Below are positions 8,359-26,643 of a DNA stretch of 56,792 nt, piece after piece. This DNA is from a virus. Taxonomy: Duplodnaviria > Heunggongvirae > Uroviricota > Caudoviricetes. The DNA lies in IMG/VR virus record IMGVR_UViG_3300045146_000225, positions 64,001 through 120,792 of that record; one strand, given 5' to 3'. Made by a program: the position numbers and the translations under genes. The notes under the pieces were generated by a model, which searched no databases, was not told where the DNA came from, and was given only the letters and a program-made list of their open reading frames with translations. Every line of letters starts with the position of its first letter. The stretch's first letter is position 1.

Positions 8359-8667
8359 ATGGCTGAATATAATTTCCAACACGGTAGCTTCATAGTCCCC
8401 GATAATAATATAGGTTCTGGTTTCATATATTCGAGCGATTCTGTTTTATATGATGGAGTCGATTACAGGTTAGGTACACTTGACGAGTACTCGGTATTCT
8501 TCAAGACGGTCATGTCTGATATAAGGGAGACAAGCAACATGAACAAGTACATACATGATGGCATGAAGGTGGCGTCTGAACATACGAAAAGCAGGCAGAA
8601 GGAAGTCAATTATATCAATAAGATGTCTAATGTAGGTAAAAGAGTGGGCGGCGATGGAAAAAAATAG
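8359..8667 (+). CDS. Hypothetical protein
   Basis: Starts 1 nt after the upstream stop; operon packing. Confidence 0.6.
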   Translation: MAEYNFQHGSFIVPDNNIGSGFIYSSDSVLYDGVDYRLGTLDEYSVFFKTVMSDIRETSNMNKYIHDGMKVASEHTKSRQKEVNYINKMSNVGKRVGGDGKK

Positions 8668-9079
8668 AGTTGTCATGATTCCATCTGGATTCAGCAAAGG
8701 TAGGGAATCAATGGTGTTCTTCACATCCATACGCAGGATTATACGGGAGTACGAGGTGGAGTTCGGTATACATCCAGACACCATAATATGTAAAGGTAAC
8801 AGGTCTGATTTGATAGCTGGTACCATACGGAGTTTAATGAGTAATTACAACGTGTCGAACGCTGATGGTGATTATGATACTATAACATTGAAGTGTTCGA
8901 GTAAACCTACCATTAAGTGCATTGACAACGGTGGGGATATTCCGATGGGCAACTCGTTTGACGGTATGGTATGTAACGGTATACAACCACCAGATGTATC
9001 CAAGTATATGGACAGGTTTTCATATTTTATAGAACGAATGGTCAGTACCGATATGGAATTTGACGTGCTGGTGTTTTGA
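8654..9079 (+). CDS. Hypothetical protein
   Basis: Overlaps the upstream stop; operon packing. Confidence 0.6.
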   Translation: MEKNRVVMIPSGFSKGRESMVFFTSIRRIIREYEVEFGIHPDTIICKGNRSDLIAGTIRSLMSNYNVSNADGDYDTITLKCSSKPTIKCIDNGGDIPMGNSFDGMVCNGIQPPDVSKYMDRFSYFIERMVSTDMEFDVLVF

Positions 9080-9106
9080 TTAAATAAATAACAATAAACT
9101 TAACAT

Positions 9107-10381
9107 ATGCTTCGTGGGTATCCAGAAGGTATATACGTGTCGTTCAATCTCGATTTATTCAGCGATGTCCCCCGCAACAAGATAGCCAACATGGTGGCTG
9201 CTTCGACCAAGATGAACACTACCTACACGTCATCGTATAAGCCAAACGATGTTAAAGAAGGGTTCAGGGTATGCATGAACGAGGTCGGTGGTAGCAAGAT
9301 GTCGCAGTTACAATCGCAGTTCTTCAATTACGCCGAGGCTGTAAACGTTATGTTCAAGTTGTTCGATGTCATTTATTCTTGCGGGTACACAACGTCGAAG
9401 TGCGTTGCCGAGATGAGGGTTGTCTTCGATGGCGATATAACTAAACTAACAAAGTTGAAGGATATAAACACGATACGCCTCGTTAATGCAGTCGACGAGT
9501 GCTGTGTGAACAAGAGGTATTCTAGCGAGAAACACGTGTCCGAGTACGTCGGCAACTTGAAGTACATGCGCCGCAAGATGTCTGGTGTCGTGCCTAGTGG
9601 TGTTGGTTTCCACAACGAGTATTCTTTCCCAGCCAACAGGAAAACGCCGTTATACGTGCCTGATTTAGAGTCCAACGTGTTGACTATACGGTATAATAAG
9701 AACACTAACTACCAGAAGGAGAAACGAGGTGCGAGTGCTTTCCTGTCCGGTGTTATAAACGCCACCACATCAATACTCGGCTCCAACAACAAGTACAGCG
9801 TGGCTGAGATGTCAAAGGTAAACGATGTCGCGGTGGCTCAGAAACGGGTTGCCGACCTAGCGCATTCGTTCGATTTGTTCTCTGTTAAATTCCCCAACAT
9901 AGAGATATCGGTTGATTTGAAACAAGACGAGGCTGTTGTTAAATCAAGGTACAATGAATTCAGAGGCAAGTTGTTTGACCTCGTGTACTTCTGTGGTGTT
10001 GAGGATTGCCAGGTGAATTACGATTCTGAACGGGGTGCTTTACAGGTAAAGGAGGCTCATATCAAGAACGGGATGTTCATAAGCGACATGGAGATGTTCT
10101 ACTGCGACATAAGCGGTGATATCTCTGGGTGCGTATTGGTAGAATGTAACGTGAGTAAATCGAACATTAAGGATTGCGAGTTGATGTACGGGTGTGCTAT
10201 CAACGATTCCATAATAGAGAACACTTGGTTCCACGGCGTTGGTATTACCGTGTCAAACTCGTTCATCCGTAACCCTAATGATAAGCTCGTCGAAGCTGAA
10301 TTGAGGAACACCAAGGTTGCCGGTGTTGTTAATTATGGTTCCATCGTCGATGGTGGATGTGAGGTTTTCGCAGTCGTTTAA
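9107..10381 (+). CDS. Hypothetical protein with C-terminal beta-helix-like repeats
   Basis: 424 aa; C-terminus has short I/V-x-x-C/S periodicity (CDISGDISGCVLVECNVSKSNIKDCEL). Confidence 0.7.
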   Translation: MLRGYPEGIYVSFNLDLFSDVPRNKIANMVAASTKMNTTYTSSYKPNDVKEGFRVCMNEVGGSKMSQLQSQFFNYAEAVNVMFKLFDVIYSCGYTTSKCVAEMRVVFDGDITKLTKLKDINTIRLVNAVDECCVNKRYSSEKHVSEYVGNLKYMRRKMSGVVPSGVGFHNEYSFPANRKTPLYVPDLESNVLTIRYNKNTNYQKEKRGASAFLSGVINATTSILGSNNKYSVAEMSKVNDVAVAQKRVADLAHSFDLFSVKFPNIEISVDLKQDEAVVKSRYNEFRGKLFDLVYFCGVEDCQVNYDSERGALQVKEAHIKNGMFISDMEMFYCDISGDISGCVLVECNVSKSNIKDCELMYGCAINDSIIENTWFHGVGITVSNSFIRNPNDKLVEAELRNTKVAGVVNYGSIVDGGCEVFAVV

Positions 10382-10470: not shown

Positions 10471-10731
10471 ATGCCCAAGTATAGGATGTATCTTGACCGT
10501 AAGGTCGTTTTATGGCAGCGTGATTACCTCAACATAGAGGCTGCTTCTAAGAAAGACGCTCAGAAAGAGATGGAGAAGTTCATAAAGTCTGGTTTGGTTA
10601 ACGACTCTCGGATATTTGATACCGATTTCTCCGATATAGAGAGTGTGGTTGAAGTCGGTGTTGATAACGAACCGACGGTGTTGTTGTATGATTCTGACGG
10701 TAATGAGCTTATTACCAACAGTGAAATGTGA
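10471..10731 (+). CDS. Hypothetical acidic phage protein
   Basis: 86-aa ORF downstream of a TACATTTG box at 10422. Confidence 0.65.
   Translation: MPKYRMYLDRKVVLWQRDYLNIEAASKKDAQKEMEKFIKSGLVNDSRIFDTDFSDIESVVEVGVDNEPTVLLYDSDGNELITNSEM
10479..10605 (+). repeat. Direct repeat copy 1 (127 bp)
   Basis: GTATAGGATGTATCTTGACCGTA...GGTTAACGAC, repeated at 11668-11795. Confidence 0.9.
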
Positions 10732-10988: not shown

Positions 10989-11600
10989 ATGGCATCAATT
11001 GATAAAACATATATAGACTCTTATAAAGATTATAAAGAGTTTAAAACTTGGGCAGACACCCAGGTGTTGACATTTTTCGATGGACATCAAAAATGTATAG
11101 GTGATTATGTTTGGCTATGCGAGGAAGAAGATTTTGAACATGGTGAGATTCCAATTATGAACACACCGACGTGGCTGGATATCTATCTGATTCAGAATTG
11201 CAAAAGTGAATTCGTCTTAGAACGAATGAAATGTATTTATGGTGATGAGCATTATGAAAAGTTTAAAACTGTTGATTTGACTTCTAAACCACCTGAAACG
11301 TTTAAACGAAAAAGGAAGATTTCTATCACTAAAAGCAAACCAACTAGCTTTGAATTTCATTCGAAACCTTACGGTGGTGGCGCGTGGTGGTTGCAATGTG
11401 ATGGCGATTTCTGGTATAACAGTGATACTAAGAAATGGGTACATCGTGATAGTTATTATCCACGTAATACGAATACTGCACACATAGCGAGCATTAAAGC
11501 ACTCATGAAACATCTAAGGAGACAATATTTACCAGCAGGTGTCGTGTTCACGCTCAAAGGGAGGTATATAGATGAAAATTATACCGTGAGTGTTTATTGA
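10989..11600 (+). CDS. Hypothetical protein
   Basis: 203-aa AT-rich ORF lying between the two repeat copies. Confidence 0.7.
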   Translation: MASIDKTYIDSYKDYKEFKTWADTQVLTFFDGHQKCIGDYVWLCEEEDFEHGEIPIMNTPTWLDIYLIQNCKSEFVLERMKCIYGDEHYEKFKTVDLTSKPPETFKRKRKISITKSKPTSFEFHSKPYGGGAWWLQCDGDFWYNSDTKKWVHRDSYYPRNTNTAHIASIKALMKHLRRQYLPAGVVFTLKGRYIDENYTVSVY

Positions 11601-11667
11601 TGTTGCTAATTTGTGATTGCGTATGGAAATGGCAACACCTGCTGAATATTAACATAAATGTACGCTG

Positions 11668-11795
11668 GTATAGGATGTATCTTGACCGTAGGGTCGTTTT
11701 TATGGTAGCGTGATTACTTCAACATAGAGGCTGCTTCTAAGAAAGACGATCAAAAAGAGATGGAGAAGTTCATAAAGTCTTGTTTGGTTAACGAC
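11668..11795 (+). repeat. Direct repeat copy 2 (128 bp, degenerate, frameshifted)
   Basis: Copy of 10479-10605 with a few substitutions and one extra T. Confidence 0.9.
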
Positions 11796-11799
11796 CAAC

Positions 11800-11949
11800 T
11801 GTGCTGGCTGCCAAGACACTCACCATCCCGGCGACATCATCCTCGTAGCAGGTAATGGACACGAGACATACCAGGAGGTGAACGGTGTGAAATCGCATTT
11901 CGATGACCGCGAGGTGGTGGTAGAACAATTTAATGGGAAAATTAAATAG
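11800..11949 (+). pseudogene. murE: C-terminal fragment of host MurE ligase
   Basis: 11821-11949 translates [42 protein letters not shown], matching the MurE tail GDxxLxAGKGHExYQ...HFDD; no upstream part. Confidence 0.8.
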
Positions 11950-11972: not shown

Positions 11973-12746
11973 ATGAATATCAATATACTAACTTGGAATA
12001 TCAACAAAAATGAATCTAAGTCTTTCTATGAGGAATTGCATAAACAACTTCTTATAGATGATATTCATATTGTTGTACTACAGGAGTGTTTTTATGATTT
12101 TTCTTCAAACGAGTTTGCCGAATTTGATGAAACAATCGATTATTTGTCTAAAAAAGGAAGGCGTTCGGTACGCATATTTATTAGAAAGTCAAGCGAATTA
12201 TCAACAAGTGATTTGACATATCATGCTGATGTTGACAACAAATTGGTTTGTATGAAAATTCATACTAAGAGTGGATGTATGTTCAACCTTGCAGGAATTC
12301 ACTTGTACAGTATATCTAATGTCACAAAAGAACAGCAAAACTATCTCAACAGCAAATTTCCTGAACTTATTTTCAGGTACGAGTCACGTATTAAAGAGAA
12401 AAAAACAATTATTGTTGGAGATTTTAACTACGGACCGTTTGATGATTTTTTTCAAAATCCAAAAATGTTTTTCACAAATAGTGATAGACGATTTGTTCGT
12501 CAATTTCCGGAGTTACAAAAGAAAGGAACCATGCGATTGTTTTATAACCCGATGTGGAATTTGGTTGATGGTGTAATTGGTAGTCCAGAGATCATGGATT
12601 GTATAGATGTAGGTTCAATTAAAATACTTGAATCATTAAACGGTAAACCATTAATCAAGCAGAGAATCAATAAATTATCAGAGTCATTTCTAGCAAATGG
12701 CTATTCAGACCATTTACCAGTTTCATTTACACTAAAATTAAATTAA
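11973..12746 (+). CDS. Endonuclease/exonuclease/phosphatase (EEP) family protein
   Basis: LTWNIN, VLQE, GIHL, IIVGDFN, SDHLPV motifs. Confidence 0.85.
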   Translation: MNINILTWNINKNESKSFYEELHKQLLIDDIHIVVLQECFYDFSSNEFAEFDETIDYLSKKGRRSVRIFIRKSSELSTSDLTYHADVDNKLVCMKIHTKSGCMFNLAGIHLYSISNVTKEQQNYLNSKFPELIFRYESRIKEKKTIIVGDFNYGPFDDFFQNPKMFFTNSDRRFVRQFPELQKKGTMRLFYNPMWNLVDGVIGSPEIMDCIDVGSIKILESLNGKPLIKQRINKLSESFLANGYSDHLPVSFTLKLN

Positions 12747-13718: not shown

Positions 13719-13938
13719 TGATATTTTTAAATACATAACTCTATGGTTAAATACGAACACGACGGTTAAACAGTTTCGTGGTTGTATAATATCATAAAAA
13801 AAATTATCATTGATATTATAAAATAATCGTATATTTGTGTGTTGTTTCTTTACACCTATGGTTTTAAAAATATCGTTTTTAAAATCACTAGAAACATGTA
13901 TTGGATACGCAGTTTTAGTTAGTATTAACATATTTAAT

Positions 13939-14370
13939 CTTAGATTCAAGTAGTAAATGCAACTTTGTGAAGGGTAATAAAAATCAAATATATCCATCAA
14001 AACAAAGATGGTAAGAAATTACCGCTTTGTCTTGATGGATATATTTGCTAAATTGCCCCCTAAGTCTCCCAAAACAAGTTGCGCTTTGGATCATATAACC
14101 GAACAACAAAGGTATCAAATTTCTTGTTTAGTACAAGCAGGGAAATCTCAGACTGAGATAGCTCAGCTAAAATGAGAATATGAATGGCTTGATTCGGTAG
14201 TATTTTCCCGAGAAACCATCTTTTGAAAATATCACTGATGAGGATATTAAGCGTGTTAAGGATAAACTTAATACACGACCGCGAAAAAAAACATAAATTT
14301 TCTTCGTACATTTAATTTTTAAATTATAAATTTGCACTTACTAAAGTTGCATTTGCAGCTTGAATCCGCC
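13939..14370 (+). mobile_element. IS30-family deletion derivative, long form (432 bp)
   Basis: Ends CTTAGATTCAAGTAGTAAATGCAAC ... GTTGCATTTGCAGCTTGAATCCGCC (imperfect IRs); 14086-14169 encodes the IS30 HTH start LDHITEQQRYQISCLVQAGKSQTEIAQL, joined to the NENMNGLIR C-terminal piece. Confidence 0.85.
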
Positions 14371-14426
14371 AAGGATTAACTATCGAACAAGCGAACAAAG
14401 CTATCGAGGTGCTTTTTTACGGTTGC

Positions 14427-14480
14427 ACCTAACGGTGGGGCTAAACCGTCGTTTTAATGCGGTTTTAGCCCGTGGTAGTA
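14427..14480 (-). other. attC-like site S1 (short, GTT altered to GGT)
   Basis: ACCTAAC-GGTG-GGGCTAAACC...GGTTTTAGCCC-GT-GGTAGTA; an upstream gene remnant (GLTIEQANKAIEVLFYGCT*) stops in the TAAC. Confidence 0.6.
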
Positions 14481-14512
14481 GCCGTTTTTTATTCATCTTT
14501 TAATTGATTTAT

Positions 14513-15136
14513 ATGATAGTATTGATAACACACGAAGAAAGCCAAACAGTAATGGAAGCGTTTTTAAATGCTGGACATGACGCATATAGTTGTGATTTAT
14601 TACCACCAAGCGGAAAGTACCCAGATAGACATTTACAAATAGATTGCTTTGAAGCAATAGAACTTATTAAGCCAGACTTTTTAGGGATGCACCCTGAATG
14701 CACGAGGTTAACAGTTGCAGCGAATAAGTATTATAAGCCTGAATATGCTGAACGCTTCCCAAATATACACGAACAAAGAGCCGAAGCAGTTGAACACTTT
14801 TTGAAATGTGCGGAAGCATTAGTGAAAGTTGGTAAAGGTTATATTGAAAACCCGATAGGGATAATGAGTAAACTCTATAAAAAGCCCACTCAAATAATAC
14901 AACCTTACCAATTTGGACATAAAGAACGCAAAAGCACTTGCTTATGGATTGAAGGATTATCAAAATTACAACCTACAAATATTGTAGAACCTGACATTAT
15001 AGTACATAAAAGCGGAAGAACTGACAGTAGATTGCACTATGAAACATTTAAGCTACCAAAAGAAGAACGAAGAAAAGCCCGTTCAAAAACCTTTACCGGA
15101 ATTGCCGAAGCGATGGCGTTGCAGTGGGGTTCTTAA
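14513..15136 (+). CDS. Cassette ORF: short phage-type DNA cytosine methyltransferase-like protein
   Basis: EESQTV..GHDAYSCDL, HPECT (PC-like), YIENPIG, IIQPYQFGH, TCLWIEGL, RSKTFTGIAEAMALQWG family pattern. Confidence 0.65.
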   Translation: MIVLITHEESQTVMEAFLNAGHDAYSCDLLPPSGKYPDRHLQIDCFEAIELIKPDFLGMHPECTRLTVAANKYYKPEYAERFPNIHEQRAEAVEHFLKCAEALVKVGKGYIENPIGIMSKLYKKPTQIIQPYQFGHKERKSTCLWIEGLSKLQPTNIVEPDIIVHKSGRTDSRLHYETFKLPKEERRKARSKTFTGIAEAMALQWGS

Positions 15137-15142
15137 AATGGC

Positions 15143-15273
15143 TACTAACGGTTGCAGGTATGGTTAGTGGCGGATTTGAAACCACAGACCTATCAAGCAG
15201 TACAAAAGTAAATGAATAGTAGAAATTTAATATTAACCACAGCACCCGCCATTAACTATACATATTGTTATGG
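15143..15273 (-). other. attC-like site S2
   Basis: AAC 15147-49, stem GTATGGTTAGTGGCGG / CCGCCATTAACTATAC, GTT 15267-69. Confidence 0.85.
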
Positions 15274-15297
15274 TTTCGTGCTTTAATTCAAATAATT

Positions 15298-15591
15298 ATG
15301 ACAATTCAATTTTATTTAAACAACGAAGAAGAAACTCACATATACTCTTTGTATGATATGAGTTCAAATCCATTTAAAATCGGTGATGTTATTAATTTAT
15401 CGGTTGATGATATTCCTCCAGTAAAATTAAAAGAATATAAGCCTGAATTTGCTAAAAAACTTGTCGAAGATAATAAGCAACAAAGAGCGATGTTTCATAA
15501 TAAAAAAATTAAAATTATTCATGAATGGAAATATATCGACATTGAAAGTGATATATTTACCATTGAATATCATTGCGATTTGGTTTCTTAG
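15298..15591 (+). CDS. Cassette ORF: hypothetical protein
   Basis: Single ORF filling the space between S2 and S3. Confidence 0.7.
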   Translation: MTIQFYLNNEEETHIYSLYDMSSNPFKIGDVINLSVDDIPPVKLKEYKPEFAKKLVEDNKQQRAMFHNKKIKIIHEWKYIDIESDIFTIEYHCDLVS

Positions 15592-15597
15592 TATGAA

Positions 15598-15727
15598 TCA
15601 TAACGGTCGGGTGTAGCACAAGTAAGGGATTGCGGAGTGCGAACCTATCAAACTACACAGACATAAAAGCGGACTACAATGCTTCAAAATTGTAGCAACC
15701 CCTTATTGGTGCTACACTTTGTTAGCC
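15598..15727 (-). other. attC-like site S3
   Basis: AAC 15602-04, stem GTGTAGCACAAGTAAGGG / CCCTTATTGGTGCTACAC, GTT 15721-23. Confidence 0.85.
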
Positions 15728-15768
15728 ACCGTATTTTATTGAATGTTATACTTTTAAATTATAAAAAT

Positions 15769-16077
15769 ATGTACACAAAAACTGAAAACAAATGGAGATA
15801 TTCGCAGGAATATCAAGAAGTAACTACCAGCAAAGATGGTATAATTGAAGGTTCAAAATCAATATGTGCAATTTCAACTTTTGACAAATCAAAAGAAGAA
15901 ATAGAATCAAATGGAAAACTTATTTCTGCTGCTCCTGAAATGTTTGAAGCATTAAAAAGAGTTGAAGCATATTTAGTAGCAAATGAAGATGTTTTAGCAC
16001 CATTTCCAACTCGAAGTGAGTTAGATAATATTCGTGCGGCAATGTTTAAAACGGGGCTGTACCAATATGGTGGCTAA
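15769..16077 (+). CDS. Cassette ORF: phage hypothetical protein with NxxLIxAAPE motif
   Basis: SNGKLISAAPEMFEAL; stop TAA lies inside the TAAC of S4. Confidence 0.7.
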   Translation: MYTKTENKWRYSQEYQEVTTSKDGIIEGSKSICAISTFDKSKEEIESNGKLISAAPEMFEALKRVEAYLVANEDVLAPFPTRSELDNIRAAMFKTGLYQYGG

Positions 16078-16156
16078 CTTACTTATATGCGTACCAAAGG
16101 TACGTATATACTACAGACGTTTGTTGTATATGCGTACCTTTTGTTGCCTAATATAG
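16072..16156 (-). other. attC-like site S4, interrupted by IS30 miniature element
   Basis: GGCTAAC then a 70-bp segment nearly identical to 19573-19642; the matching GTT appears at 16464 after the element. Confidence 0.55.
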
Positions 16157-16457
16157 CTTAGATTCAAGTAGTAAATGCAACTTTGGGAATGGTAATAAAA
16201 ATCAAATGTTTTTCAAAACAAAGGGGTAATTTCTTACCATTCATGGGAACGTGGAACAAATGAGAATATGAATGGCTTGATTCGGCAGTATTTTCCCAAG
16301 AAATCATCTTTTGGAAATATTACTGATGAGGATATTAAGCGTGTTAAGGATAAACTTAATACGCGACCGCGAAAAAAAACATAAATTTTCTTTGCATATT
16401 GAATTTTTAATTATAAATTTGGACTTGCTAAAGTTGCATTTGTAGCTTGAATCCGCC
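16157..16457 (+). mobile_element. IS30-derived miniature element (301 bp)
   Basis: Same ends as 13939-14370; interior encodes SYHSWERGTNENMNGLIRQYFPK (IS30 transposase C-terminus). Confidence 0.88.
16391..16421 (+). promoter_or_regulatory. Outward-facing Bacteroidota consensus promoter in the element's right end
   Basis: TTTG (16391-94) - 19 nt - TAAATTTG (16414-21); other copies read TTCG-N20-TAAATTTG (-7 boxes at 14327, 19899, 23813). Confidence 0.6.
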
Positions 16458-16485
16458 TTTGTTGTTAGCAAATCGTTTTAATGTT

Positions 16486-16616
16486 TGCTAACGGTTTGGC
16501 GGTATGAAACGGCAGGGATTAAGTGTGAAACTCTATCAGCCGAAACGAATGATGAATAGTAGCACAACGGTTAATTACGGCACATCAGCCCTGCTGTTTT
16601 ATACCGCTTGTTAGGG
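16486..16616 (-). other. attC-like site S5
   Basis: AAC 16490-92, 19-bp stem GCGGTATGAAACGGCAGGG / CCCTGCTGTTTTATACCGC, GTT 16610-12. Confidence 0.88.
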
Positions 16617-16637
16617 GCTGGTATTTATACAAATTTT

Positions 16638-16904
16638 ATGAATTTTTCTCAAGCATTAGAAAGCCTAAAATTAGGTAGTAAAGTTCAGCGTGGAGGCTGG
16701 AATGGTAAAGGAATGTATATTTTCCTTATCGGTACAGATTTGTCAAAAGTCGGCACAGGTGGATGGACTTACACAAATGGAGTAAACGATAATTATGAAT
16801 TACTTCCATTTATTGCAATGAAAACAGCCGATGAAAAAGTTGTTCCGTGGCTGGCTTCTCAAACAGATATTTTAGCAGAGGATTGGTGTATTCTTTTAGG
16901 CTAA
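16638..16904 (+). CDS. Cassette ORF: DUF2829 / Tad2-like protein (candidate nucleotide-signal sponge)
   Basis: FSQALESLKLGSKVQRGGWNGKGMYIFL ... PWLASQTDILAEDW, the DUF2829 signature. Confidence 0.8.
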   Translation: MNFSQALESLKLGSKVQRGGWNGKGMYIFLIGTDLSKVGTGGWTYTNGVNDNYELLPFIAMKTADEKVVPWLASQTDILAEDWCILLG

Positions 16905-16937
16905 ATTATCAAATGGGGTATGCCGTCTTATGCTTGT

Positions 16938-17068
16938 CCCTAACGAATGGCGGTATGGGCAGTTGGGGATTAGAAACCACTACACTATCCGCAAGTATAA
17001 ACTTAATAAAATGCAGAAATGATAAATGAACAGATAATACCCCAATTGCCTATGCCCGCTTGTTATGC
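16938..17068 (-). other. attC-like site S6
   Basis: AAC 16942-44, stem GCGGTATGGGCAGTTGGGG / CCCCAATTGCCTATGCCCGC, GTT 17062-64. Confidence 0.85.
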
Positions 17069-17825
17069 ACAGGTTATTTTAGGCGATTGCTTGGAGTTGT
17101 ATAAAAATATTGAACCTAAAAGCATAGACTTAATTTTAACCGATTTGCCTTATGGTACGACTGCGTGTAAATGGGACACTATAATTCCATTTGATAAACT
17201 TTGGGAAATGGTAAATTACTTACTAAAACCAAATGGAACATTTATTACAACAGCTTCACAACCTTTTACAAGTGCTTTAGTAATGAGTAACCCGAAAATG
17301 TTTAAGTATGAGTGGATTTGGGATAAAGTGCAACCTACTGGGGCATTTAATGCAAGCAAACAACCAATGAAGTTACATGAAAATATATTAGTGTTTTATA
17401 ATAACCAGCCTATTTATAATAGGCAAATGACAGATAGACCGCTAAAGGATTTAAGACCAAACCAAATAAAAACTACAAAAGAATTGGATAGGGTTGAATA
17501 TGAATATTTAGGAGGACAAAAGAAACAGTATTCATCAAATTGGGATTACACAAAAGTAAATCCGAAAACAATTATTCAGTTTCAAAAATCTGCCGAAAGA
17601 TTTAAAGAATTTAAACACCCCACCCAAAAACCAGTAGCATTATTTGAGTACCTACTTAAAACATACAGTAATGAAGGAATGACAATATTTGACCCTTGTA
17701 TGGGTTCTGGAACAACTGGAGTAGCATGTAAAAATCTAAACCGAAACTTCATCGGAATAGAAAAAGACGAGAACTATTTCAAAATAGCAGAGCAGCGAAT
17801 AAATGCACGGACGCTGTTTTCTTAA
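17019..17825 (+). CDS. Cassette ORF: beta-class N4C/N6A DNA methyltransferase
   Basis: GDCLE, LILTDLPYG (motif IV), HPTQKPVAL, FDPCMGSGTTG (motif I); start codon lies inside S6. Confidence 0.9.
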   Translation: MINEQIIPQLPMPACYAQVILGDCLELYKNIEPKSIDLILTDLPYGTTACKWDTIIPFDKLWEMVNYLLKPNGTFITTASQPFTSALVMSNPKMFKYEWIWDKVQPTGAFNASKQPMKLHENILVFYNNQPIYNRQMTDRPLKDLRPNQIKTTKELDRVEYEYLGGQKKQYSSNWDYTKVNPKTIIQFQKSAERFKEFKHPTQKPVALFEYLLKTYSNEGMTIFDPCMGSGTTGVACKNLNRNFIGIEKDENYFKIAEQRINARTLFS

Positions 17826-17830
17826 CTTGT

Positions 17831-17924
17831 GCATAACGGGCGAGTGTAGCCATCAGTAGGCTAACGCACCGACCTGTTAATTTAGTAATAACTTTCCGCC
17901 TATTGTGGCTACACTTTGTTAGCA
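17831..17924 (-). other. attC-like site S7 (short class)
   Basis: AAC 17835-37, stem AGTGTAGCCATCAGTAGGC / GCCTATTGTGGCTACACT, GTT 17918-20. Confidence 0.85.
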
Positions 17925-17948
17925 ACTTGGCGGGTAAAATAGAACGAA

Positions 17949-18161
17949 ATGACAATAGAAAACATTAAAAAAGAGATGCTAAAATACCGTGATTTTTACG
18001 GTGGCAATTTGCTTGAAGTAGGCGAAATCGAAAATGCAACTACAAAAGAAGAGCTTGAAAAAATTATTGAAAACCATAGAAGCCACATGGAAGCAATGTT
18101 AAGTGACGCTAATGGGCATCTCGATAATTTGAAAAGGAAATGCAAGTTAGGGTACTGTTAG
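17949..18161 (+). CDS. Cassette ORF: hypothetical protein
   Basis: 70-aa ORF between S7 and S8. Confidence 0.7.
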   Translation: MTIENIKKEMLKYRDFYGGNLLEVGEIENATTKEELEKIIENHRSHMEAMLSDANGHLDNLKRKCKLGYC

Positions 18162-18170
18162 TAGCCTTGT

Positions 18171-18265
18171 TGCTAACGTTCGAGGCTATGAGTAGTGCAG
18201 CCTTTCAAACCGTATCAATTTAGCACTACATTAAGTGGCTGCATTACTTATAGCCTTTGTTAGCC
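18171..18265 (-). other. attC-like site S8 (short class)
   Basis: AAC 18175-77, 20-bp stem AGGCTATGAGTAGTGCAGCC / GGCTGCATTACTTATAGCCT, GTT 18259-61. Confidence 0.88.
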
Positions 18266-18301
18266 ACATGTTTTTATTAATCATTTTAAAATTAAATAGA
18301 T

Positions 18302-18646
18302 ATGAGTACAATTTCAATTAATGGTAATACTTATTCAGGCAATAGTATTGTAGTGATAAATGGAAAAGTTATTGTAAATGGCAATGATGTTACACCTGAT
18401 AGTAAGGAAATAAACATTAAAGTTGATGGGAATATTAACAAATTAGAAGTTGATGCTTGTAATAAAGTAGAAATTACTGGAGATGTTTCAAGTATTAAAA
18501 CACAAAGCGGAGATGTTGAAATTACGGGAAATGTTACTGGTTCAATTCAAACAATGTCAGGCGATGTTGATTGTGGAACAGTCGAGGGTTCAATTTCAAC
18601 AATGAGTGGTGATATTAAGCACAAGCGTTCTCAAACTTGTGGCTAA
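18302..18646 (+). CDS. Cassette ORF: small beta-solenoid-like protein (T-x-S-G-D repeats)
   Basis: TQSGDV, TMSGDV, TMSGDI repeats; stop TAA inside the TAAC of S9. Confidence 0.7.
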   Translation: MSTISINGNTYSGNSIVVINGKVIVNGNDVTPDSKEINIKVDGNINKLEVDACNKVEITGDVSSIKTQSGDVEITGNVTGSIQTMSGDVDCGTVEGSISTMSGDIKHKRSQTCG

Positions 18647-18770
18647 CGTTACGTATATGGTAAGTTGGGGGATAGAATGCACAAACCTATCAACTTGCAA
18701 GAACTAAATAAATTGTGCTAATATAACAAGTTGGAACGACACCCCCAATTTGCTATATACATTGTTAGGG
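18641..18770 (-). other. attC-like site S9
   Basis: AAC 18645-47, stem GTATATGGTAAGTTGGGG / CCCCAATTTGCTATATAC, GTT 18764-66. Confidence 0.85.
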
Positions 18771-18789
18771 TGCGTTTATTTTTATCAAA

Positions 18790-19095
18790 ATGGAAAATTA
18801 CACACGAGTAAGAGTAGAATTAGATGTTATGGCTCAAAAATTAATTAGTCAATACATGATTAATAATGAACGAATTGAAAAAGATATTGAAGCTGGGATA
18901 AACCGAGCTTTTGAAACAATTGACTTAGAAAAAGAAGTTGAACGCTCCGTTAAAAATGCTATTGAAAAAGCAATAAAAGATTCCTCGGAATGGGGTAAAA
19001 TTCGAGATGCTGTAAAAAAGAAAACCGATGAAATTGTCGAAAGTTATATTGAAAAATCAATTTCTAAATTTAGACAGGATTTTCAAACGGAGTAA
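18790..19095 (+). CDS. Cassette ORF: hypothetical helical protein
   Basis: 101-aa ORF between S9 and S10. Confidence 0.7.
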   Translation: MENYTRVRVELDVMAQKLISQYMINNERIEKDIEAGINRAFETIDLEKEVERSVKNAIEKAIKDSSEWGKIRDAVKKKTDEIVESYIEKSISKFRQDFQTE

Positions 19096-19109
19096 AGTGT
19101 TTAAATGCA

Positions 19110-19240
19110 CCCTAACGGTGTCGCAGCTATGCAATGTGCGGGTGTACGAAGTGCTTTCGTATCCCACGTTACAGAACTTAGCTACGAGCTGAAAAGATTG
19201 CGTTTGCAGCACCCCGCATAGTGTATAGGTGCTGTTATAA
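19110..19240 (-). other. attC-like site S10
   Basis: AAC 19114-16, stem GCAGCTATGCAATGTGCGGG / CCCGCATAGTGTATAGGTGC, GTT 19234-36. Confidence 0.8.
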
Positions 19241-19272
19241 ACAGGCTTTTATTAACTTTCTAAATATAAATT

Positions 19273-19560
19273 ATGAAAAAAGAAAAACACACAGAAGGAA
19301 ATTGGAAATATAGACCAGATATAGTAGGCAATAGTTTTTATATTGAAACGGTTGACCAATCTCACGATAGAACATTTATTGGGGAAATAGGTGGAGGACT
19401 TCAATCTAAAATAGAAATTGAAGCTAATGCAAAACTTGTATCTACCGCACCCGAACTTTTAGAAGCATGTCAACGAGCTTTAGAAGTTTTTGAATCTGAA
19501 AATATAACAGGACAAGCAAGATTGTTGCTGGCAGTCGCTATCAAAAAGGCGGTTTTTTAG
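19273..19560 (+). CDS. Cassette ORF: phage hypothetical protein with NxxLxxxAPE motif
   Basis: HTEGNW...EANAKLVSTAPELLEAC; same family pattern as 15769..16077. Confidence 0.7.
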   Translation: MKKEKHTEGNWKYRPDIVGNSFYIETVDQSHDRTFIGEIGGGLQSKIEIEANAKLVSTAPELLEACQRALEVFESENITGQARLLLAVAIKKAVF

Positions 19561-19565
19561 CTTGT

Positions 19566-19642
19566 TTATAACTTACGTATATGCGTACCAAAGGTACGTA
19601 TATACTACAGACGTTTGTTGTATATGCGTACCTTTTGTTGCC
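19566..19642 (-). other. attC-like site S11, truncated by IS30 miniature element
   Basis: TTATAAC then the 70-bp segment shared with S4. Confidence 0.55.
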
Positions 19643-19942
19643 CTTAGATACAAGCAGTAAATGCAACTTTGGGAAGGGTAATAAAAATCAAATGTTTTCA
19701 AAACAAAGGGGTAATTTCTTACCCTTCATGGGAACGTGGAACAAATGAGAATATGAATGGCTTGATTCGGCAGTATTTTCCCGAGAAACCATCTTTTGAA
19801 AATATCACTGATGAGGATATTAAGCGTGTTAAGGATAAACTTAATACGCGACCGCGAAAAAAACATAAATTTTCTTCGCACATTGAATTTTTAAATTATA
19901 AATTTGCACTTGCTAAAGTTGCATTTGCAGCTTGAGTCCGCC
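19643..19942 (+). mobile_element. IS30-derived miniature element (300 bp)
   Basis: Near-identical to 16157-16457; tracked ORF 19669..19935 is its transposase remnant. Confidence 0.88.
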
Positions 19943-20064
19943 TTGGCTAATCTTGTAACCACTTTGCGCGAAGAAGATAAACTTTGCATCATTAACACAG
20001 GCGATGAAGAACACCGAGAACCACAAATTATTTGTTCAATGGGATTAACTAATGTTCAATAAGT

Positions 20065-23000
20065 ATGGCTAAGTTAAATATAGAAAATACACGAAAAGCA
20101 TTACAGTCATTCGACTTTAAAACCTTGTTTATTGAGGAATTGGGATGGAGTAACCCTTCTTCTTCGAAAGTAATTAATGAAACGATAAAGGATATTGTTA
20201 TAATTCGTAAACCCATTGCCGAATTGAGCGGTGCTGTGGTTTTTGAGATTACAACACCAACTGGTATTGTTCCCGAACCAAAAGAACGGGCAGCGATTGC
20301 AAAAGAAATACAAAAACAGCATTTTGAACATGTTTTGATTTTTGTTGACAGCGACCGTAAACAAAGCATTTGGTACTGGCTGAAACATCAGGACAAAAAA
20401 CTGTTGAGTAGGGAGCATTTTTATTTCCGACACCAACCAGGCGATGTGTTTATTGCCAAAATAGCCTCTTTGGTTGTTGACATAAGTGAATTCGACCGTG
20501 AAGGGAATATTGCTATTGCCGAAGTAGCAAGCCGTATAAAATCGGCTTTGGATATCGAACGGGTGGTTAAAAAATTCTTCCGCGAATACCAACAGGAATA
20601 TATTGTTTTTCTCGACCTTATCGAAGGCATTGACAATGAAGCCGACCGCCGCTGGTATGCATCGGTTATCCTTAACAGGCTCATGTTTATATATTTTCTA
20701 CAAAAGAAATTGTTTGTTGACAATGCTAACGCTAACTACCTTAACAGCAAACTTGAATTCTCGAAAAAAGAACTGGGTAAAAACAAATTTTACGAGGTTT
20801 TCTTAAGTAAATTGTTTTTCGAAGGTTTTGCCAAAAACGAAAGCCAGCGAAGCCCCGAAACCAATAAGCTGATAGGTAAGATTAAATACCTTAATGGTGG
20901 CTTGTTCATGAAACATAAAATTGAGATAAAGTACGATGGTAAAATAAAAATTGCTGACGAAGCATTTGTAACCATATTCGATTTATTCGACCGTTACAGC
21001 TGGACATTGAACGATACGCCCGGTGGTGCCGACAACGAAATGAACCCCGATGTACTTGGTTATATTTTTGAAAAATACATTAACCAAAAAGCATTTGGGG
21101 CATATTATACACGAACAGAGATTACCGAATACCTCTGCGAACAAACGGTTTATAAACTTATTCTTGATGCTATAAATGAACCCGAAATCGACCCTGAATT
21201 ATTTAAAAAAACAGGCTTGGATAAATTTGGAAACCCCAAACGTTACGATTCTATAGCTGAACTTTTACTGAACCTCGATGCTGCCAATTGCAAAAAGTTG
21301 GTTATGGGCGATGATGCTATTTTGCCAAACCTTAGTTTGCTCGACCCTGCCTGTGGTTCGGGTGCATTTTTGGTGGCAGCTATGAAAACGCTTATTAACG
21401 TATATGCTGTCGTGCTGGGCAAAATTGATTTTCTGGGCGATAAAAAGCTAACCGAATGGAAACAACAAATTGAAACCGACCACCCGAGCATTAACTATTA
21501 CATTAAAAAACAAATTATTACCAACAACCTGTATGGGGTTGACCTGATGGAGGAAGCTACCGAAATAGCCAAACTACGCCTGTTCCTTGCATTAGTGGCA
21601 AGTGCCGACACGGTTGACCAGTTGGAACCCCTGCCCAATATTGTTTTTAATATAATGAATGGCAACTCGCTTATAGGATTGATGCGGGTTGATGCCGGAA
21701 GATTTGAAAAACATCAGGGACAAAACCTCTTCCGTAAAAGTTATGCCGACTTGTTACGTGAAAAAAACATTGCTATTCAGTTGTACAAAAACCCGAAAGG
21801 TATTGACGATATACAACTGTTGAAAAACAATATTGAACGCCACCGCGAGGAAGTCATACCCATTCTCGACGATATGCTCATGAACGAGTTTGGAAACCTT
21901 GGTATTAAATATGAACAGATAACCTGGGACGAGAATAAAAACAAGGAAGGCAAGCCCGTTAAACGCAGCCTGAACATTAACGACATAAAAGCTCTTGAAC
22001 CTTTCCATTGGGGTTACGAGTTTTCTGAAATTTTCAGGAAAAAGGACGGGTTTGATGCTATTATTACAAATCCACCTTGGGAGGTGTTTAAACCAAACTC
22101 AAAAGAGTTTTTTCTTGCCTACTCAAATATTGTTTCGAGAAAAAGAATGAGCATTAAAGATTTTGAGCAGGAACAGGAAAAAATTTTACAAGACCAGGAA
22201 ATAAAAGAAGCATGGATAAATTATTTAAGCAGCTATCCCCATGTGAGTTCATATTTCAGAAGTGCAAAGCAATTCGAAAATCAAATATCAATAGTTAATG
22301 GTAAAAAAGCTGGTTCGGATATAAACCTTTACAAACTTTTCACAGAGCAATGTTTTAATTTGTTAAGGAAAGGTGGTTATAGTGGAATTGTTATACCAAG
22401 TGGAATTTATACTGATTTAGGTACAAAGCAATTACGAAAATTATTATTTGAACAAAATAAAGTAACAGGCTTGTTCTGTTTTGAAAACCGTAAAGAAATT
22501 TTTGAGGGTGTTCACCGTAGCTTTAAATTTGTTGTTTTAAGTTTTGAGAAAGGAGGGAACACTAAATCATTCCCTGCTGCTTTTATGCGCCACGATGTGG
22601 ATGAATTAACTAGCTTTCCAAAATATGGAGCTTCGGAGATAAGTCTTAATTTTATCACAAAACAAAGTCCTGAAAGTCTTTCAGTTACAGAAGTGAAAAA
22701 TGATATTGATTTTAGTATTTTACAAAAAACCATATCATTCCCCTTTGTAAGTGACAAAATATATGGCACATGGAACATTGAGTTGGGTAATGAATTTCAC
22801 ATGACAAACGATAGTAAAATATTTTTAACAAAACCAGATAAGAACGCATTCGCATTATATGAGGGTAAAATGATATGGCAATTTTATCATAGATATAGCG
22901 AACCAAGATATTGGATTAATGAAAATACGGGAAGGAAGTCAATTTTAGGTAAGCAAAAAGATGATGGTCAGATTTTAAATTATCAAAATTATAGACTTGC

Positions 23001-23544
23001 ATTTAGGGATATAACTTCACCAACAAATGAGCGGTCGATGATTAATACAATTGTTCCCAAAAATATCTTTGCCGGTAATACTCTTGTTTTATCAAAAAAC
23101 AATATTTCATCAGCAGATTTGTTATGTATTACTTCATTTTTAAATGGATATACAAATGATTATTTAATTCGTCAAAAAATTACTTCACACTGTAATTTAT
23201 TTTATGTCTATCAACTTCCCGTACCTCGCCTCAAACCCACCGACAAATGGTTCAAGCCTATTATTGAACGTGCAGCCAAACTTATTTGCACCACCGAAGA
23301 ATATGCCGATTTATGGGAAGAAACCATGCAAACCAAATGGAGCGAAAAAGTTGCAGCAACCAATGAATATGAACGTAACAAACTACGGGCAGAACTTGAT
23401 GGCATTATTGCCCATATTTACGGGCTTACCGAAGAAGAATTTACTTACATTTTAAGTACATTTCCTATTGTACCACAACCACAGAAAGTGGCAGTACAGA
23501 ATGCTTATAGGGATGTGATAAATGGGTTTATTAAACCTGAATAA
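20065..23544 (+). CDS. Large N6-adenine DNA methyltransferase (Eco57I/type IIG-like or DISARM DrmMI-like)
   Basis: GAYYT, LDPACGSGAFL (motif I), NLYGVD, IITNPPW (motif IV), C-terminal TRD-like region; no nuclease motif recognised. Confidence 0.85.
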   Translation: MAKLNIENTRKALQSFDFKTLFIEELGWSNPSSSKVINETIKDIVIIRKPIAELSGAVVFEITTPTGIVPEPKERAAIAKEIQKQHFEHVLIFVDSDRKQSIWYWLKHQDKKLLSREHFYFRHQPGDVFIAKIASLVVDISEFDREGNIAIAEVASRIKSALDIERVVKKFFREYQQEYIVFLDLIEGIDNEADRRWYASVILNRLMFIYFLQKKLFVDNANANYLNSKLEFSKKELGKNKFYEVFLSKLFFEGFAKNESQRSPETNKLIGKIKYLNGGLFMKHKIEIKYDGKIKIADEAFVTIFDLFDRYSWTLNDTPGGADNEMNPDVLGYIFEKYINQKAFGAYYTRTEITEYLCEQTVYKLILDAINEPEIDPELFKKTGLDKFGNPKRYDSIAELLLNLDAANCKKLVMGDDAILPNLSLLDPACGSGAFLVAAMKTLINVYAVVLGKIDFLGDKKLTEWKQQIETDHPSINYYIKKQIITNNLYGVDLMEEATEIAKLRLFLALVASADTVDQLEPLPNIVFNIMNGNSLIGLMRVDAGRFEKHQGQNLFRKSYADLLREKNIAIQLYKNPKGIDDIQLLKNNIERHREEVIPILDDMLMNEFGNLGIKYEQITWDENKNKEGKPVKRSLNINDIKALEPFHWGYEFSEIFRKKDGFDAIITNPPWEVFKPNSKEFFLAYSNIVSRKRMSIKDFEQEQEKILQDQEIKEAWINYLSSYPHVSSYFRSAKQFENQISIVNGKKAGSDINLYKLFTEQCFNLLRKGGYSGIVIPSGIYTDLGTKQLRKLLFEQNKVTGLFCFENRKEIFEGVHRSFKFVVLSFEKGGNTKSFPAAFMRHDVDELTSFPKYGASEISLNFITKQSPESLSVTEVKNDIDFSILQKTISFPFVSDKIYGTWNIELGNEFHMTNDSKIFLTKPDKNAFALYEGKMIWQFYHRYSEPRYWINENTGRKSILGKQKDDGQILNYQNYRLAFRDITSPTNERSMINTIVPKNIFAGNTLVLSKNNISSADLLCITSFLNGYTNDYLIRQKITSHCNLFYVYQLPVPRLKPTDKWFKPIIERAAKLICTTEEYADLWEETMQTKWSEKVAATNEYERNKLRAELDGIIAHIYGLTEEEFTYILSTFPIVPQPQKVAVQNAYRDVINGFIKPE

Positions 23545-23555
23545 TGGAAAGATTG

Positions 23556-23856
23556 CTTAGATTCAAGTAGTAAATGCAACTTTGGGAATGGTAATAAAAA
23601 TCAAATATTTTTCAAAACAAAGGGGTAATTTCTTACCCTTCATGGGAACGTGGAACAAATGAGAATATGAATGGCTTGATTCGGCAGTATTTTCCCGAGA
23701 AATCATCTTTTGAAAATATTACTGATGAGGATATTAAGCGTGTTCAGGATAAACTTAATACGCGACCACGAAAAAAACATAAATTTTCTTCGTACATTGA
23801 ATTTTTAAATTATAAATTTGCACTTACTAAAGTTGCATTTGCAGCTTGAATCCGCC
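23556..23856 (+). mobile_element. IS30-derived miniature element (301 bp)
   Basis: Near-identical to the other copies; ends 6 nt before the leuS ATG. Confidence 0.88.
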
Positions 23857-23862
23857 AGATAA

Positions 23863-26643
23863 ATGGAATACAACTTCAAAGAACTAGAGCCAAAGTGGCG
23901 TAAATACTGGGCACAGAACAAGACCTACAAGGTAGAGATAGACCAGAATAAACCGAAATACTACGTGCTCGACATGTTCCCCTACCCTAGTGGCGCAGGT
24001 TTGCACGTAGGTCACCCGCTCGGGTACATTGCCGGCGACATTTTCTCGCGTTACAAACGGATGAACGGTTTCAACGTGTTGCACCCCATGGGCTACGATG
24101 CATTCGGGCTTCCGGCAGAACAATACGCCATCCAAACAGGTCAACATCCCGCTGTTACTACCGAACAGAATATCAACCGCTACCGAGAACAACTCGACAA
24201 AATCGGCTTTTCTTACGACTGGGACCGCGAGGTTCGTACCTGCGACCCTGCTTATTACCATTGGACTCAATGGGTGTTCATCAGGATGTTCAACCACTGG
24301 TACAACAATAAAACCCAGAAAGCAGAACCAATTTCCGAACTCGTCAAAACATTCGAGAACCTCGGTAACGCCTCCATCGATGCCCCAAACAACCAGCCGG
24401 AAATCTTCACGGCAGAGCAGTGGAACTCGATGAACGACCATGCCAAACAAGGAACTCTCCTCAACTACCGCCTGGCATACTTGGCGAATATGATGGTGAA
24501 CTGGTGCCCTAAACTCGGTACCGTATTGGCCAACGACGAAGTGAAAGATGGACTCTCCGTGCGAGGAGGTCACCCTGTCGAACAGAAAGAGATGAGCCAG
24601 TGGTGTTTGCGTATTTCTGCCTATGCACAACGCTTACTCGATGGTCTCGACACTATCGACTGGAGCGAGAGTATCAAGGAAGTTCAACGCAACTGGATAG
24701 GTCGCTCAGAAGGTACCGAGATGAAGTTCCCGGTTAAAGGGTCTAGCGAGGTAATCGAGATTTTCACCACCCGTGCCGACACTGTTTTTGGCGTCACCTT
24801 CATGGTTCTTGCCCCAGAAAGCAAGCTCGTGGATCAACTTACAACACCCGAACACCGTGCTGCCGTCGACCAATACATCGAGGAAACCAAGAAACGAACG
24901 CAACGAGAACGAATGTCCGATGTCAAGCGAATATCAGGCGTTTTCACTGGTGCCTACGCTATCAACCCGCTCACCAACAAAGAAATCCCCGTGTGGGTAA
25001 GCGATTACGTGCTGGCATGTTACGGAACTGGCGCTATCATGGCTGTGCCTGCTCACGATAGCCGCGACTTCGCCTTCGCAAAACACTTCAAACTTCCCAT
25101 AACCCAAGTGGTTGTTCATCCTGGCGAAGAAGCCAGCAACCCGCTAGACTGGAGCGAATCCAAAGGCTCCAAGGAAGGGACCATGATAAACTCTGGCTTC
25201 ATCACTGGTATGGACGTGAAAGAGGCTATCGAGAAGACAAAACAATTTGTAAAGGAACAAAACATAGGTCAAGTTAAGGTCAACTATCGCCTGCGCGATG
25301 CAATTTTCAGCCGCCAGAGGTACTGGGGTGAACCCTTCCCAATTTATTTCAAAGATGGACTGCCACAAGTTATCGCCGACGAAAATCTCCCCCTCGAACT
25401 GCCTGCGGTCGACAAATACCTCCCAACCGAAGACGGGCAACCTCCTCTCGGACGTGCCAAGAACTGGGCTTCCCTCGATGGCTTCCCCTTCGAGATGAAC
25501 ACCATGCCCGGGTTTGCAGGCTCCAGCGCATACTATTTTCGCTACATGGACCCCAAAAACCCGAATGCCCTCGCATCTCCCGAAGCCCTCGACTACTGGA
25601 AAGATGTTGACCTGTACCTTGGTGGCAACGAACACGCTACCGGTCACCTCATTTACAGCCGTTTCTGGTGTAAGTTCCTCTTCGACATAGGCATAGCTCC
25701 CGTGCAAGAGCCGTTTAAGAAGCTCATTAACCAAGGTATGATACAAGGGCAATCGAAGTTCGTGTACCGTATCATCAACACGAACACATTCGTTTCATAC
25801 AACCTTCGCAAGCAATACGACACCCAGGAGCTTCACGTTGATGTAAATATCGTCGAGAACGACACCCTCGATACCGACGCCTTCCGCAAATGGCTACCCG
25901 ACTACCACAATGCCGAGTTTATCCTCGAAAACGATAAATATATTTGTGGCACGGCTGTCGAGAAAATGTCTAAGTCTATGTACAATGTGGTGAACCCCGA
26001 TATGATAGTCGACAAATACGGTGCCGACACTCTCCGCATGTACGAGATGTTCCTAGGTACTCTCGAGATGAGCAAGCCCTGGGATACGCAAGGAATTGAC
26101 GGTGTGTTTAAATTCTTGCGCCGGTTCTGGAACCTGTTTTTCAACGGTGGAACATTCTCTGTTAGCGATGCGCAACCCACTGCCGACGAGCTTAAAGTTC
26201 TCCACAAAACCATCAAGAAAATAACCAACGACATAGAGCAATTCTCGTTCAACACCTCGGTAAGTGCCTTCATGATTTGCCTCAACGAGCTTCAAGTCCT
26301 AAAGTGCAACAAGAAAATCATACTCGAACAAGTTGTTGTTCTCCTCGCTCCATTTGCACCCCACATCTCCGAAGAATTGTGGCAGCTTCTTGGAAATACT
26401 TCAACCATCTGCGATGCACCATGGCCCGTATTCGACGAGAAATACCTTGTCGAGAACTCGGTGAAATACCCCGTTTTTTTCAATGGGAAAGTTCGTTTCA
26501 CGCTCGAGGTTGCTGCCGACACCAACGCAGTGGAAGTAGAAAAACTCGCTCTTTCAAACGAACAGACTACCAAATATTTGGATGGGAAGACCCCGAAAAA
26601 AATCATCGTCATACAAGGCAAAATTGTTAACGTGGTGTTTTGA
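23863..26643 (+). CDS. leuS: Leucyl-tRNA synthetase, Bacteroidota-type, full length
   Basis: [15 protein letters not shown] (HIGH), editing-domain TTRADT and [27 protein letters not shown]; visibly GC-richer than its neighbours. Confidence 0.97.

Follow-up and report, generated by a model that had tools for sequence, protein, structure and literature searches.

The window analysed here is a stretch of 56,792 nucleotides (positions 64,001 to 120,792) from a 120.8-kb virus record that is about half complete (IMG/VR record IMGVR_UViG_3300045146_000225). It contains, at window positions 14430-19642, an array in which hairpin sites reading TAACG...TTGTTA separate ten small genes, every one of them on the + strand. 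We concluded that this is probably a phage-borne, integron-like cassette array, the polarity of which is mirrored relative to that of bacterial integrons. The carrier is a large lake-water phage of Flavobacterium-type bacteria, and it keeps small anti-defence genes as integron-like mobile cassettes. Lake-water metagenomes carry the window nearly unchanged, and the closest cultured relatives of the array region are Baltic Sea Flavobacterium phages and Polaribacter phage P12002L.

Every informative boundary lay in the left TAAC of a site and none lay at the G|TT of its right end, which means that a site travels with its downstream gene. Each mobile unit starts with the C of a TAAC, ends with the AA of the following one and comprises a 5ʹ hairpin site and a single gene in the same orientation. 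In the mechanism that we propose, which follows that of attC sites, the sense (+) strand would fold into a hairpin, and a tyrosine recombinase would cleave it at AA|C on the 5ʹ arm. Excision between two sites would produce a circle, in which the matching flanks of the cassette would rebuild a longer outer stem. New cassettes would insert where the array ends downstream, at a docking site (TAAC|TATnATATAT) that in related phages is found just before the gene of a 269-aa recombinase.

Measured from TAAC to TGTTA, six of the eleven window sites are 124-125 nt long, two are 88-89 nt, and three are short (S0, S3s and S10s). The eight full sites listed in a first-pass annotation of the sequence were all located by their TAAC..TGTTA spans (S1, S2 and S4 to S9). 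The parts of the array are as follows.

14430-14477, + strand: site S0, short and degenerate (TAACGG...GTGGTA), heading cassette 1; homologous to P12002L_attC1 (Qi et al. 2023, PMC9892861)
14433-15148, + strand: cassette 1, S0 and a 210-aa gene at 14504-15136
15149-15603, + strand: cassette 2, site S1 (15146-15270) and an open reading frame (ORF) that extends to 15591, without a Pfam family
15604-16077, + strand: cassette 3, site S2 (15601-15724) and an ORF at 15769-16077, the stop codon of which lies within the next TAAC
16075-16148, + strand: site S3s, a short 72-nt site (TAAC...GTTGCC)
16150-16465, no strand assigned: remnant of an IS30-like miniature element inserted directly after S3s, followed by an empty cassette remnant at 16466-16491
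16492-16943, + strand: cassette 5, site S4 (16489-16613) and a Tad2-like anti-Thoeris gene at 16638-16904 (PF11195, 9e-27)
16944-17836, + strand: cassette 6, site S5 (16941-17065) and an N6/N4 DNA methyltransferase gene at 17019-17825 (PF01555, 4e-33)
17837-18176, + strand: cassette 7, 88-nt site S6 (17834-17921) and a 70-aa ORF at 17949-18161
18177-18646, + strand: cassette 8, 89-nt site S7 (18174-18262) and a 114-aa ORF at 18302-18646
18647-19115, + strand: cassette 9, site S8 (18644-18767) and a 101-aa ORF at 18790-19095
19116-19571, + strand: cassette 10, site S9 (19113-19237) and a 95-aa ORF at 19273-19560
19569-19642, + strand: site S10s, a short site that closes the array, with an IS30-like miniature element behind it at about 19643-19945

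The recognisable cargo comprised the Tad2-like protein, the N6/N4 DNA methyltransferase and the gene of cassette 1, which showed 83% nucleotide identity to Flavobacterium phage genes annotated as DNA methyltransferase. The remaining cassette genes of the window array matched no Pfam family.

Boundaries of the mobile unit

Five independent kinds of evidence pointed to the left TAAC as the end of the site at which crossover occurs: a duplicated cassette, cultured isolates, Muminvirus species, a census of breakpoints and variants from lakes. In a 208-kb phage contig (L028), the segment 8399-8792 was repeated at 11401-11794 with 100% identity over 394 nt. The repeat comprised the TAAC of a site, the site and a 76-aa gene, up to the following TAAC, and its second copy adjoined the end of the array, next to the docking site. 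The cultured isolates mumin6-1 and mumin6-3 were 99.9% identical and differed by one 506-bp unit, a leader and a gene, bounded by repeated TAACGTT; three further mumin isolates showed no additional indel in the array. A 788-nt methyltransferase cassette was 100% identical in three Muminvirus species, where it had three left and two right contexts and always extended from TAAC to TAAC. In one Muminvirus species an additional cassette was inserted between the last cassette and the array terminus.

For the census, all blocks of at least 95% identity among 97 loci were collected and distinct breakpoints were counted. Left ends were found at TAAC in 11 cases. Right ends were found at TAAC in 10 cases and a few bases inside the next site in about four, with none at GTTA. 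The shared blocks of 95-100% identity ran from the TAAC of one site to the TAAC of the next, and none of the approximately 15 informative right ends took in the downstream site up to its G|TT. The first-pass annotation had predicted that each site is inherited with the gene downstream of it and that crossover takes place at AA|C in the left TAAC, and both predictions agreed with these blocks. The methyltransferase cassette that it had delimited, 16944-17836, begins exactly at the C of a TAAC and stops exactly at the AA of the following one. Homologous cassettes elsewhere that keep the downstream site, which the annotation had named as refuting its reading, were not observed.

Boundaries of the same kind were seen at the window locus. 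S2 together with 39 nt downstream was 86.7% identical to another locus (L062), and the identity began at TAAC. Variants of the locus in lake metagenomes joined 16072 to 18172 inside a common GCTAAC, that is, cassette 3 to an S7-like site, and past the TAAC at 19572 lake variants had an S4-like site in place of S10s. The methyltransferase frame of cassette 6 opens at 17019, within S5, so that its first 15 codons lie inside the site, before GTTA. The start MI(D/E/N) is common to the homologous cassette methyltransferases, the frames of which likewise open within their upstream sites.

The flanks of the sites also carry a cassette signature. The bases behind the GTTA of one site are complementary, with G·T allowed, to those ahead of the TAAC of the following site. 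This pairing covered 5-11 leading bases in all nine cassettes measured (9/9), as in the right flank of S0, GTAGCC, which pairs with GGCTAC ahead of S1, and it was repeated in other arrays. In the same comparison, the two flanks of a single site paired for only 0-2 bases. Matched flanks across each gene are the classical footprint of cassettes with a circular form. Such complementarity places the crossover within TAAC or GTTA, and alone it does not tell which of the two is used. An empty cassette was noticed at 16466-16491, consisting of a right-hand core and flank (TTGTTA GCAAAT), about 8 nt, a matching left flank and the next TAAC, without a gene; its flanks, read by eye, pair over 6 bases (GCAAAT with GTTTGC).

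These results bear directly on whether the array is an ordinary integron or a cluster of attC sites lacking integron-integrases (CALIN), in which a gene owns its downstream site, the minus strand is folded and crossover occurs at the G|TT of the right end. The AAC/GTT cores and the attC-like size and architecture of the sites would suit such an array, and the homologous site of P12002L was filed as a CALIN attC by Qi et al. 2023 (PMC9892861). We nevertheless consider it extremely unlikely, because 10-14 shared blocks end at the left TAAC and 0 of about 15 at the right GTTA, because the duplicated cassette and the isolate indel both extend from TAAC to TAAC, and because a gene can start within its upstream site.

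Fold and covariation of the sites

Each site folds with an outer stem of 6 bp, in which TAACGG pairs with TTGTTA with two G·T pairs included, a one-sided bulge of 3-5 nt in the 5ʹ arm of the folded + strand, about 18-20 bp of inner stem with arms equal in length, and a loop of 50-60 nt with the conserved patches GGGATT and CTATCA. A covariance model built from seven sites found the family widely in viral contigs. TAAC and GTTA were invariant. In a set of 59 family sites, the proportion of paired cells was 95.4%, compared with 68.6% in shuffles, and compensatory double changes were found in 331 cells, compared with 100. The covariation score was 0.61, against 0.13 in shuffled sites and at most 0.105 with slid partners, and compensatory changes occurred in 17 of the 18 inner-stem pairs. 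These results indicated that the hairpin structure is conserved far beyond chance.

Both strands of each site were compared for stability. The + strand had the lower free energy in 10 of the 11 window sites, with RNA and DNA parameters alike, and it folded better in 50 (RNA parameters) or 54 (DNA parameters) of the 59 family sites. The earlier count of 16 G-T wobbles and no A-C mismatches in the inner stems proved essentially right: on the seven parsable window sites we counted 19 G·T/T·G pairs within the inner stems and another 10 within the outer ones, against a single 1x1 A·C mismatch. The 59 family sites contained 1110 Watson-Crick, 204 G·T/T·G and 11 A·C/C·A pairs. Most of the wobbles (182/204) fell at four fixed positions, namely the two G that follow TAAC, whose partners are the TT preceding GTTA, and a further two in the inner stem, and are thus conserved features rather than independent events. 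Outside these positions, the ratio of wobbles to A·C pairs was only about 22 to 7-10. The strand that folds better is the sense strand here, and it is the strand that standard tools term 'bottom', which is a further point against an ordinary integron. In integrons a single folded strand recombines and replication resolves the product. Here we infer, from where the crossover falls and from the more stable fold of the + strand, that single-stranded + DNA is the substrate.

The same fold could serve as RNA. The hairpins would then be 5ʹ leaders of the cistrons that control stability, processing or translation through G·U pairs, and cassette exchange would be a by-product of recombination between leaders. 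Consistent with this idea, the sites are always on the sense strand, the G·U pairs and the loop motifs GGGATT and CTATCA are conserved, start codons can fall in the loop, and a run of T follows many sites. As the sole explanation it is distinctly unlikely, since it leaves unexplained the exact TAAC-to-TAAC units, the complementary flanks across each gene, the conserved docking site by a tyrosine recombinase and the cassette duplicated with 100% identity at a docking site; in addition, a search of Rfam at gathering thresholds gave zero matches in the window. A role as RNA beside the role as DNA, the alternative raised in the first-pass annotation, is possible for the hairpins, though not required. 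Bacteroidota -33/-7 promoter motifs were sought after the sites by eye, without a formal test, and none was convincing.

Docking site and recombinase in related phages

A first scan returned two arrays in which the last cassette ends in ...NNN TAAC, followed by TAT(A/T)ATATAT, about 40 bases and then the start of a tyrosine recombinase gene (269-273 aa) on the same strand. A search with these two recombinase proteins gave 80 phage loci. All model matches in these loci (210/210) lay upstream of the recombinase gene and on its strand, with none in the downstream flanks, and ORFs upstream of the recombinase amounted to 122.7 kb on its strand, compared with 22.5 kb on the opposite one. About 50 nt before the ATG of the recombinase, between the array and the gene, the docking sequence TAAC|TATnATATAT was conserved. 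The first-pass annotation had expected any attI-like site to lie toward higher coordinates, and in the relatives the docking site and the recombinase are indeed at the downstream end of the arrays. With this, all three of its testable predictions were borne out. An ordinary integron does not account for this order.

The recombinases have a SAM-like N-terminal domain and a catalytic domain. They scored 153-167 bits against the integron integrase model TIGR02249, below its cut-off of 265, and their best family was NF040815 (XerA / integron integrase) with 168-193 bits, below its cut-off of 220. When aligned to VchIntIA (2A3V), query residues 19-179 matched 16-180 and query residues 213-268 matched 261-316. 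About 47 IntI residues, at the place of the IntI-specific insertion, are therefore missing from the 269-aa recombinase. The predicted enzyme is likely a Xer/IntI-like recombinase and not an IntI. We presume that this Xer-like recombinase of the relatives is the enzyme of the system and that in the phage of the window it would act in trans.

The affinity of the enzyme raises the question whether recombination is double-stranded, in the manner of Xer/dif, at a short core of about TAACG(T/G), with the inverted repeats being accessory or forming a cruciform and with no single substrate strand. The recombinase is closest to XerA and XerC/D and is without the IntI insertion that reads extrahelical bases, the Muminvirus core TAACGTT holds the palindrome AACGTT, and directly repeated cores that bound the units are what simple excision would leave. 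Xer/dif and pdif modules are like the present arrays in having a Xer-like enzyme and gene modules bounded by recombinase sites. On the other hand, dif-type sites are duplexes about 28 bp long in which a 6-8-bp spacer separates two 11-bp arms, and they alternate in orientation, whereas the sites here are covarying hairpins of 72-125 nt in one orientation. Their arms are 50-60 nt apart, unlike in dif sites of 28-30 bp, and stems that co-vary as the sequence drifts fit a folded substrate and not sequence-specific duplex arms. The strand asymmetry, in G·T pairs and in the one-sided bulge, would have no role in a duplex. We therefore judge this explanation unlikely.

Several observations weigh against a mirrored, integron-like system. 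Neither an integron integrase nor any Xer-like recombinase was found when sought in the 120.8-kb record, nor was a recombinase found in three complete array-bearing phages of about 40 kb; given such arrays, the link between enzyme and site is an associative one. The cassette lost in mumin6-3 has a degenerate site, and that event could hence be microhomology-mediated. A minority of the shared blocks begin after the upstream site (mumin 3635 / snusm 4722; L137 3799 / L141 2863) and two begin at the ORF, which means that sites and genes are sometimes uncoupled by a second exchange route. Most of the wobbles are at four conserved positions, and with as much right one could take them for A·C mismatches that are fixed on the minus strand. 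Finally, the folded bottom strand of integron sites carries two extrahelical bases on its 3ʹ arm, whereas here there are none and the bulge of 3-5 nt is on the 5ʹ arm.

Some of these points would also suit exchange without dedicated machinery, that is, homologous or microhomology-mediated exchange between TAAC cores and flanks during co-infection. Many arrays, including that of the window phage and those of the three 40-kb phages, are without a recombinase, one indel involved a degenerate site and a 7-bp repeat, and some blocks break outside the core. Still, a core of 4-7 bp is too short for efficient homologous exchange, and a conserved, covarying hairpin of 125 nt, polar arrays and a docking site by the recombinase in 80 loci point to a dedicated system. 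Exchange of this kind is thus very unlikely to account for the array.

Comparison with known systems and neighbouring features

The mirrored polarity was also compared with a canonical attC, namely that of aadA7, the one site on which our comparison, including that of the wobble bias, is based. Table S3 of Qi et al. 2023 (PMC9892861) gives both strands of this site, one of which reads TAACG...TTGTTAG and can be recognised as the bottom strand by the two extra bases of its 3ʹ arm. It matches the + strand of the present sites, as the earlier reading of their polarity had implied. Taken together, sequence, fold, crossover position and the place of the docking site assign to the sense strand the role that the bottom strand has in integrons, with the genes inverted relative to the sites. 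The mirror is imperfect, in that the bulge is on the 5ʹ arm and the enzyme is likely not an IntI.

Integrons (IntI, attI and attC; class 1 and Vibrio chromosomal) and the present arrays have much in common. Both are arrays of single promoterless genes with imperfect hairpins and AAC/GTT cores. The RYYYAAC / GTTRRRY-core inverted repeats of integrons are kept by structure and not by sequence, and their sites are chimeric, with complementary cassette ends; both features were found here. In both, too, a tyrosine recombinase from the Xer/IntI clade has a docking site next to it, and there are duplicated cassettes at the docking position. The differences concern geometry, enzyme and carrier. In integrons the attC is downstream of the gene and crossover is at G|TT of the right core, whereas here the site precedes the gene and crossover is at the 5ʹ end of the site on the sense strand. 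The attI and integrase of integrons are promoter-proximal and the genes read away from them; here the genes point toward the docking site and recombinase. The integron integrase has the IntI-specific insertion that the 269-aa recombinase of the relatives does not have. The carrier here is a phage and the cargo consists of anti-defence genes (DNA methyltransferases, Tad2-like), unlike in integrons.

One site of this family has been described before. Qi et al. 2023 (PMC9892861) called a site of Polaribacter phage P12002L an attC with HattCI, filed it as a CALIN and noted methyltransferase cargo. This site, P12002L_attC1, has methyltransferase genes on either side, and its sense strand reads TAACGG...TTGTTAG; of six sites, it alone failed to recombine with IntI1 (Qi et al. 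2023, PMC9892861). The same authors read the sites as canonical attC borrowed from bacteria and ascribed 'divergent directions' to mosaicism; their phage CALINs were presented without description of a dedicated recombinase, a docking site or a reversed unit (Qi et al. 2023, PMC9892861). We noticed that P12002L_attC2 (L208:4320-4390), which was called on the strand opposite to attC1, lies at the terminus of the P12002L array, directly after the GCC TAAC of the last cassette. It may be the docking region of P12002L rather than an attC. In literature on attC wobble bias, Baltic Flavobacterium phages and integron-like systems of phages, we found no description of a reversed unit, a docking site or a short recombinase.

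Two other systems share single features with the arrays. In the integrons of Treponema and other Spirochaetes with an inverted integrase, the recombinase is co-oriented with the cassettes, as it is here. Their cassettes are canonical and a true IntI lies upstream of the array, whereas here the cassette is reversed and the recombinase is downstream. The PeSL cassettes of T4-type phages are reportedly short elements of a promoter plus a stem-loop that are exchanged by homologous recombination. They resemble the present cassettes in that small early or accessory phage genes are involved and that the preceding stem-loop travels with the gene and mediates shuffling between phages, but they are not known to have AAC/GTT cores, matched cassette ends, a docking site or a recombinase.

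Bacteroidota phages may well own a gene-capture platform of this kind, a 'mirror integron', built of a short Xer-like recombinase without the IntI domain and of hairpins on the sense strand. In such a platform, new genes would enter promoter-distally, by the recombinase gene, and the site would supply each with a leader and sometimes with its first codons. Such a platform would have arisen independently or else be a deep sister of integrons, and it would serve the trade in anti-defence genes between phages. The geometry of integrons has been held as fixed: gene then attC, the bottom strand as substrate, and new cassettes beside the promoter. If true, the opposite geometry would separate the necessary features of integrons from historical accident, and there would be a second, simpler enzyme for recombining structured single-stranded DNA, one without the domain regarded as indispensable for the recognition of folded sites. 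The exchange of methyltransferases, Tad2-like sponges and further anti-defence genes, each as a single unit, among Bacteroidota phages would be explained as well. As a practical matter, tools that call attC will give these arrays wrong cassette boundaries.

The short sites S3s and S10s are identical from exactly TAAC onward, and a third copy is present at L120:8603-8687 in the same phage genome. They are putative docking-site-like sequences, possibly a diverged docking site; an exact search of viral contigs for their core gave no match. The genes of cassette 3 (15769-16077) and cassette 10 (19273-19560) are paralogous, with 36% identity, and each is the last gene ahead of one of the identical short sites. 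The IS30-like miniature element, which carries a C-terminal fragment of a transposase and the terminal repeat GGCGGATTCAAGCTNCAAATGCAACTTT, was found in five copies (window 13930-14375, 16150-16465, 19643-19945 and 23550-23857; L120 about 8690-9242). Three of the five lie within 1-9 nt of a short site S3s/S10s, in either orientation, as if it were a preferred target.

A second, smaller array of the same site family was found in the same phage genome (L120:7197-7326, 7643-7774 and 8603-8687; 35.2-36.7 kb of the genome), and it likewise ends in an S3s-like short site followed by the miniature element. The GC skew of the record is lowest at about 44-47 kb, and on that basis the lagging-strand template would be the + strand of the window. 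This argument was set aside because the small array at 35 kb, on the other side of the minimum, has the same orientation.

Directly downstream of the main array (window 20065-23544, 23863-26643 and 26724-28238) are genes for a leucyl-tRNA synthetase, a type IIG enzyme and a methylase. The phage leucyl-tRNA synthetase is flanked by the 1159-aa type IIG restriction-modification enzyme (Eco57I/MmeI-like) and by a second Eco57I-like methylase gene. Upstream of the array, the start of a small ORF, about 130 nt, is repeated near-exactly 1.2 kb apart (window 10474-10730 and 11668-11800), with the second copy truncated. Just upstream of the array, at 11973-12746 and beside genes without a family, lies the gene of a 257-aa protein of the endonuclease/exonuclease/phosphatase family, with weak Pfam matches.

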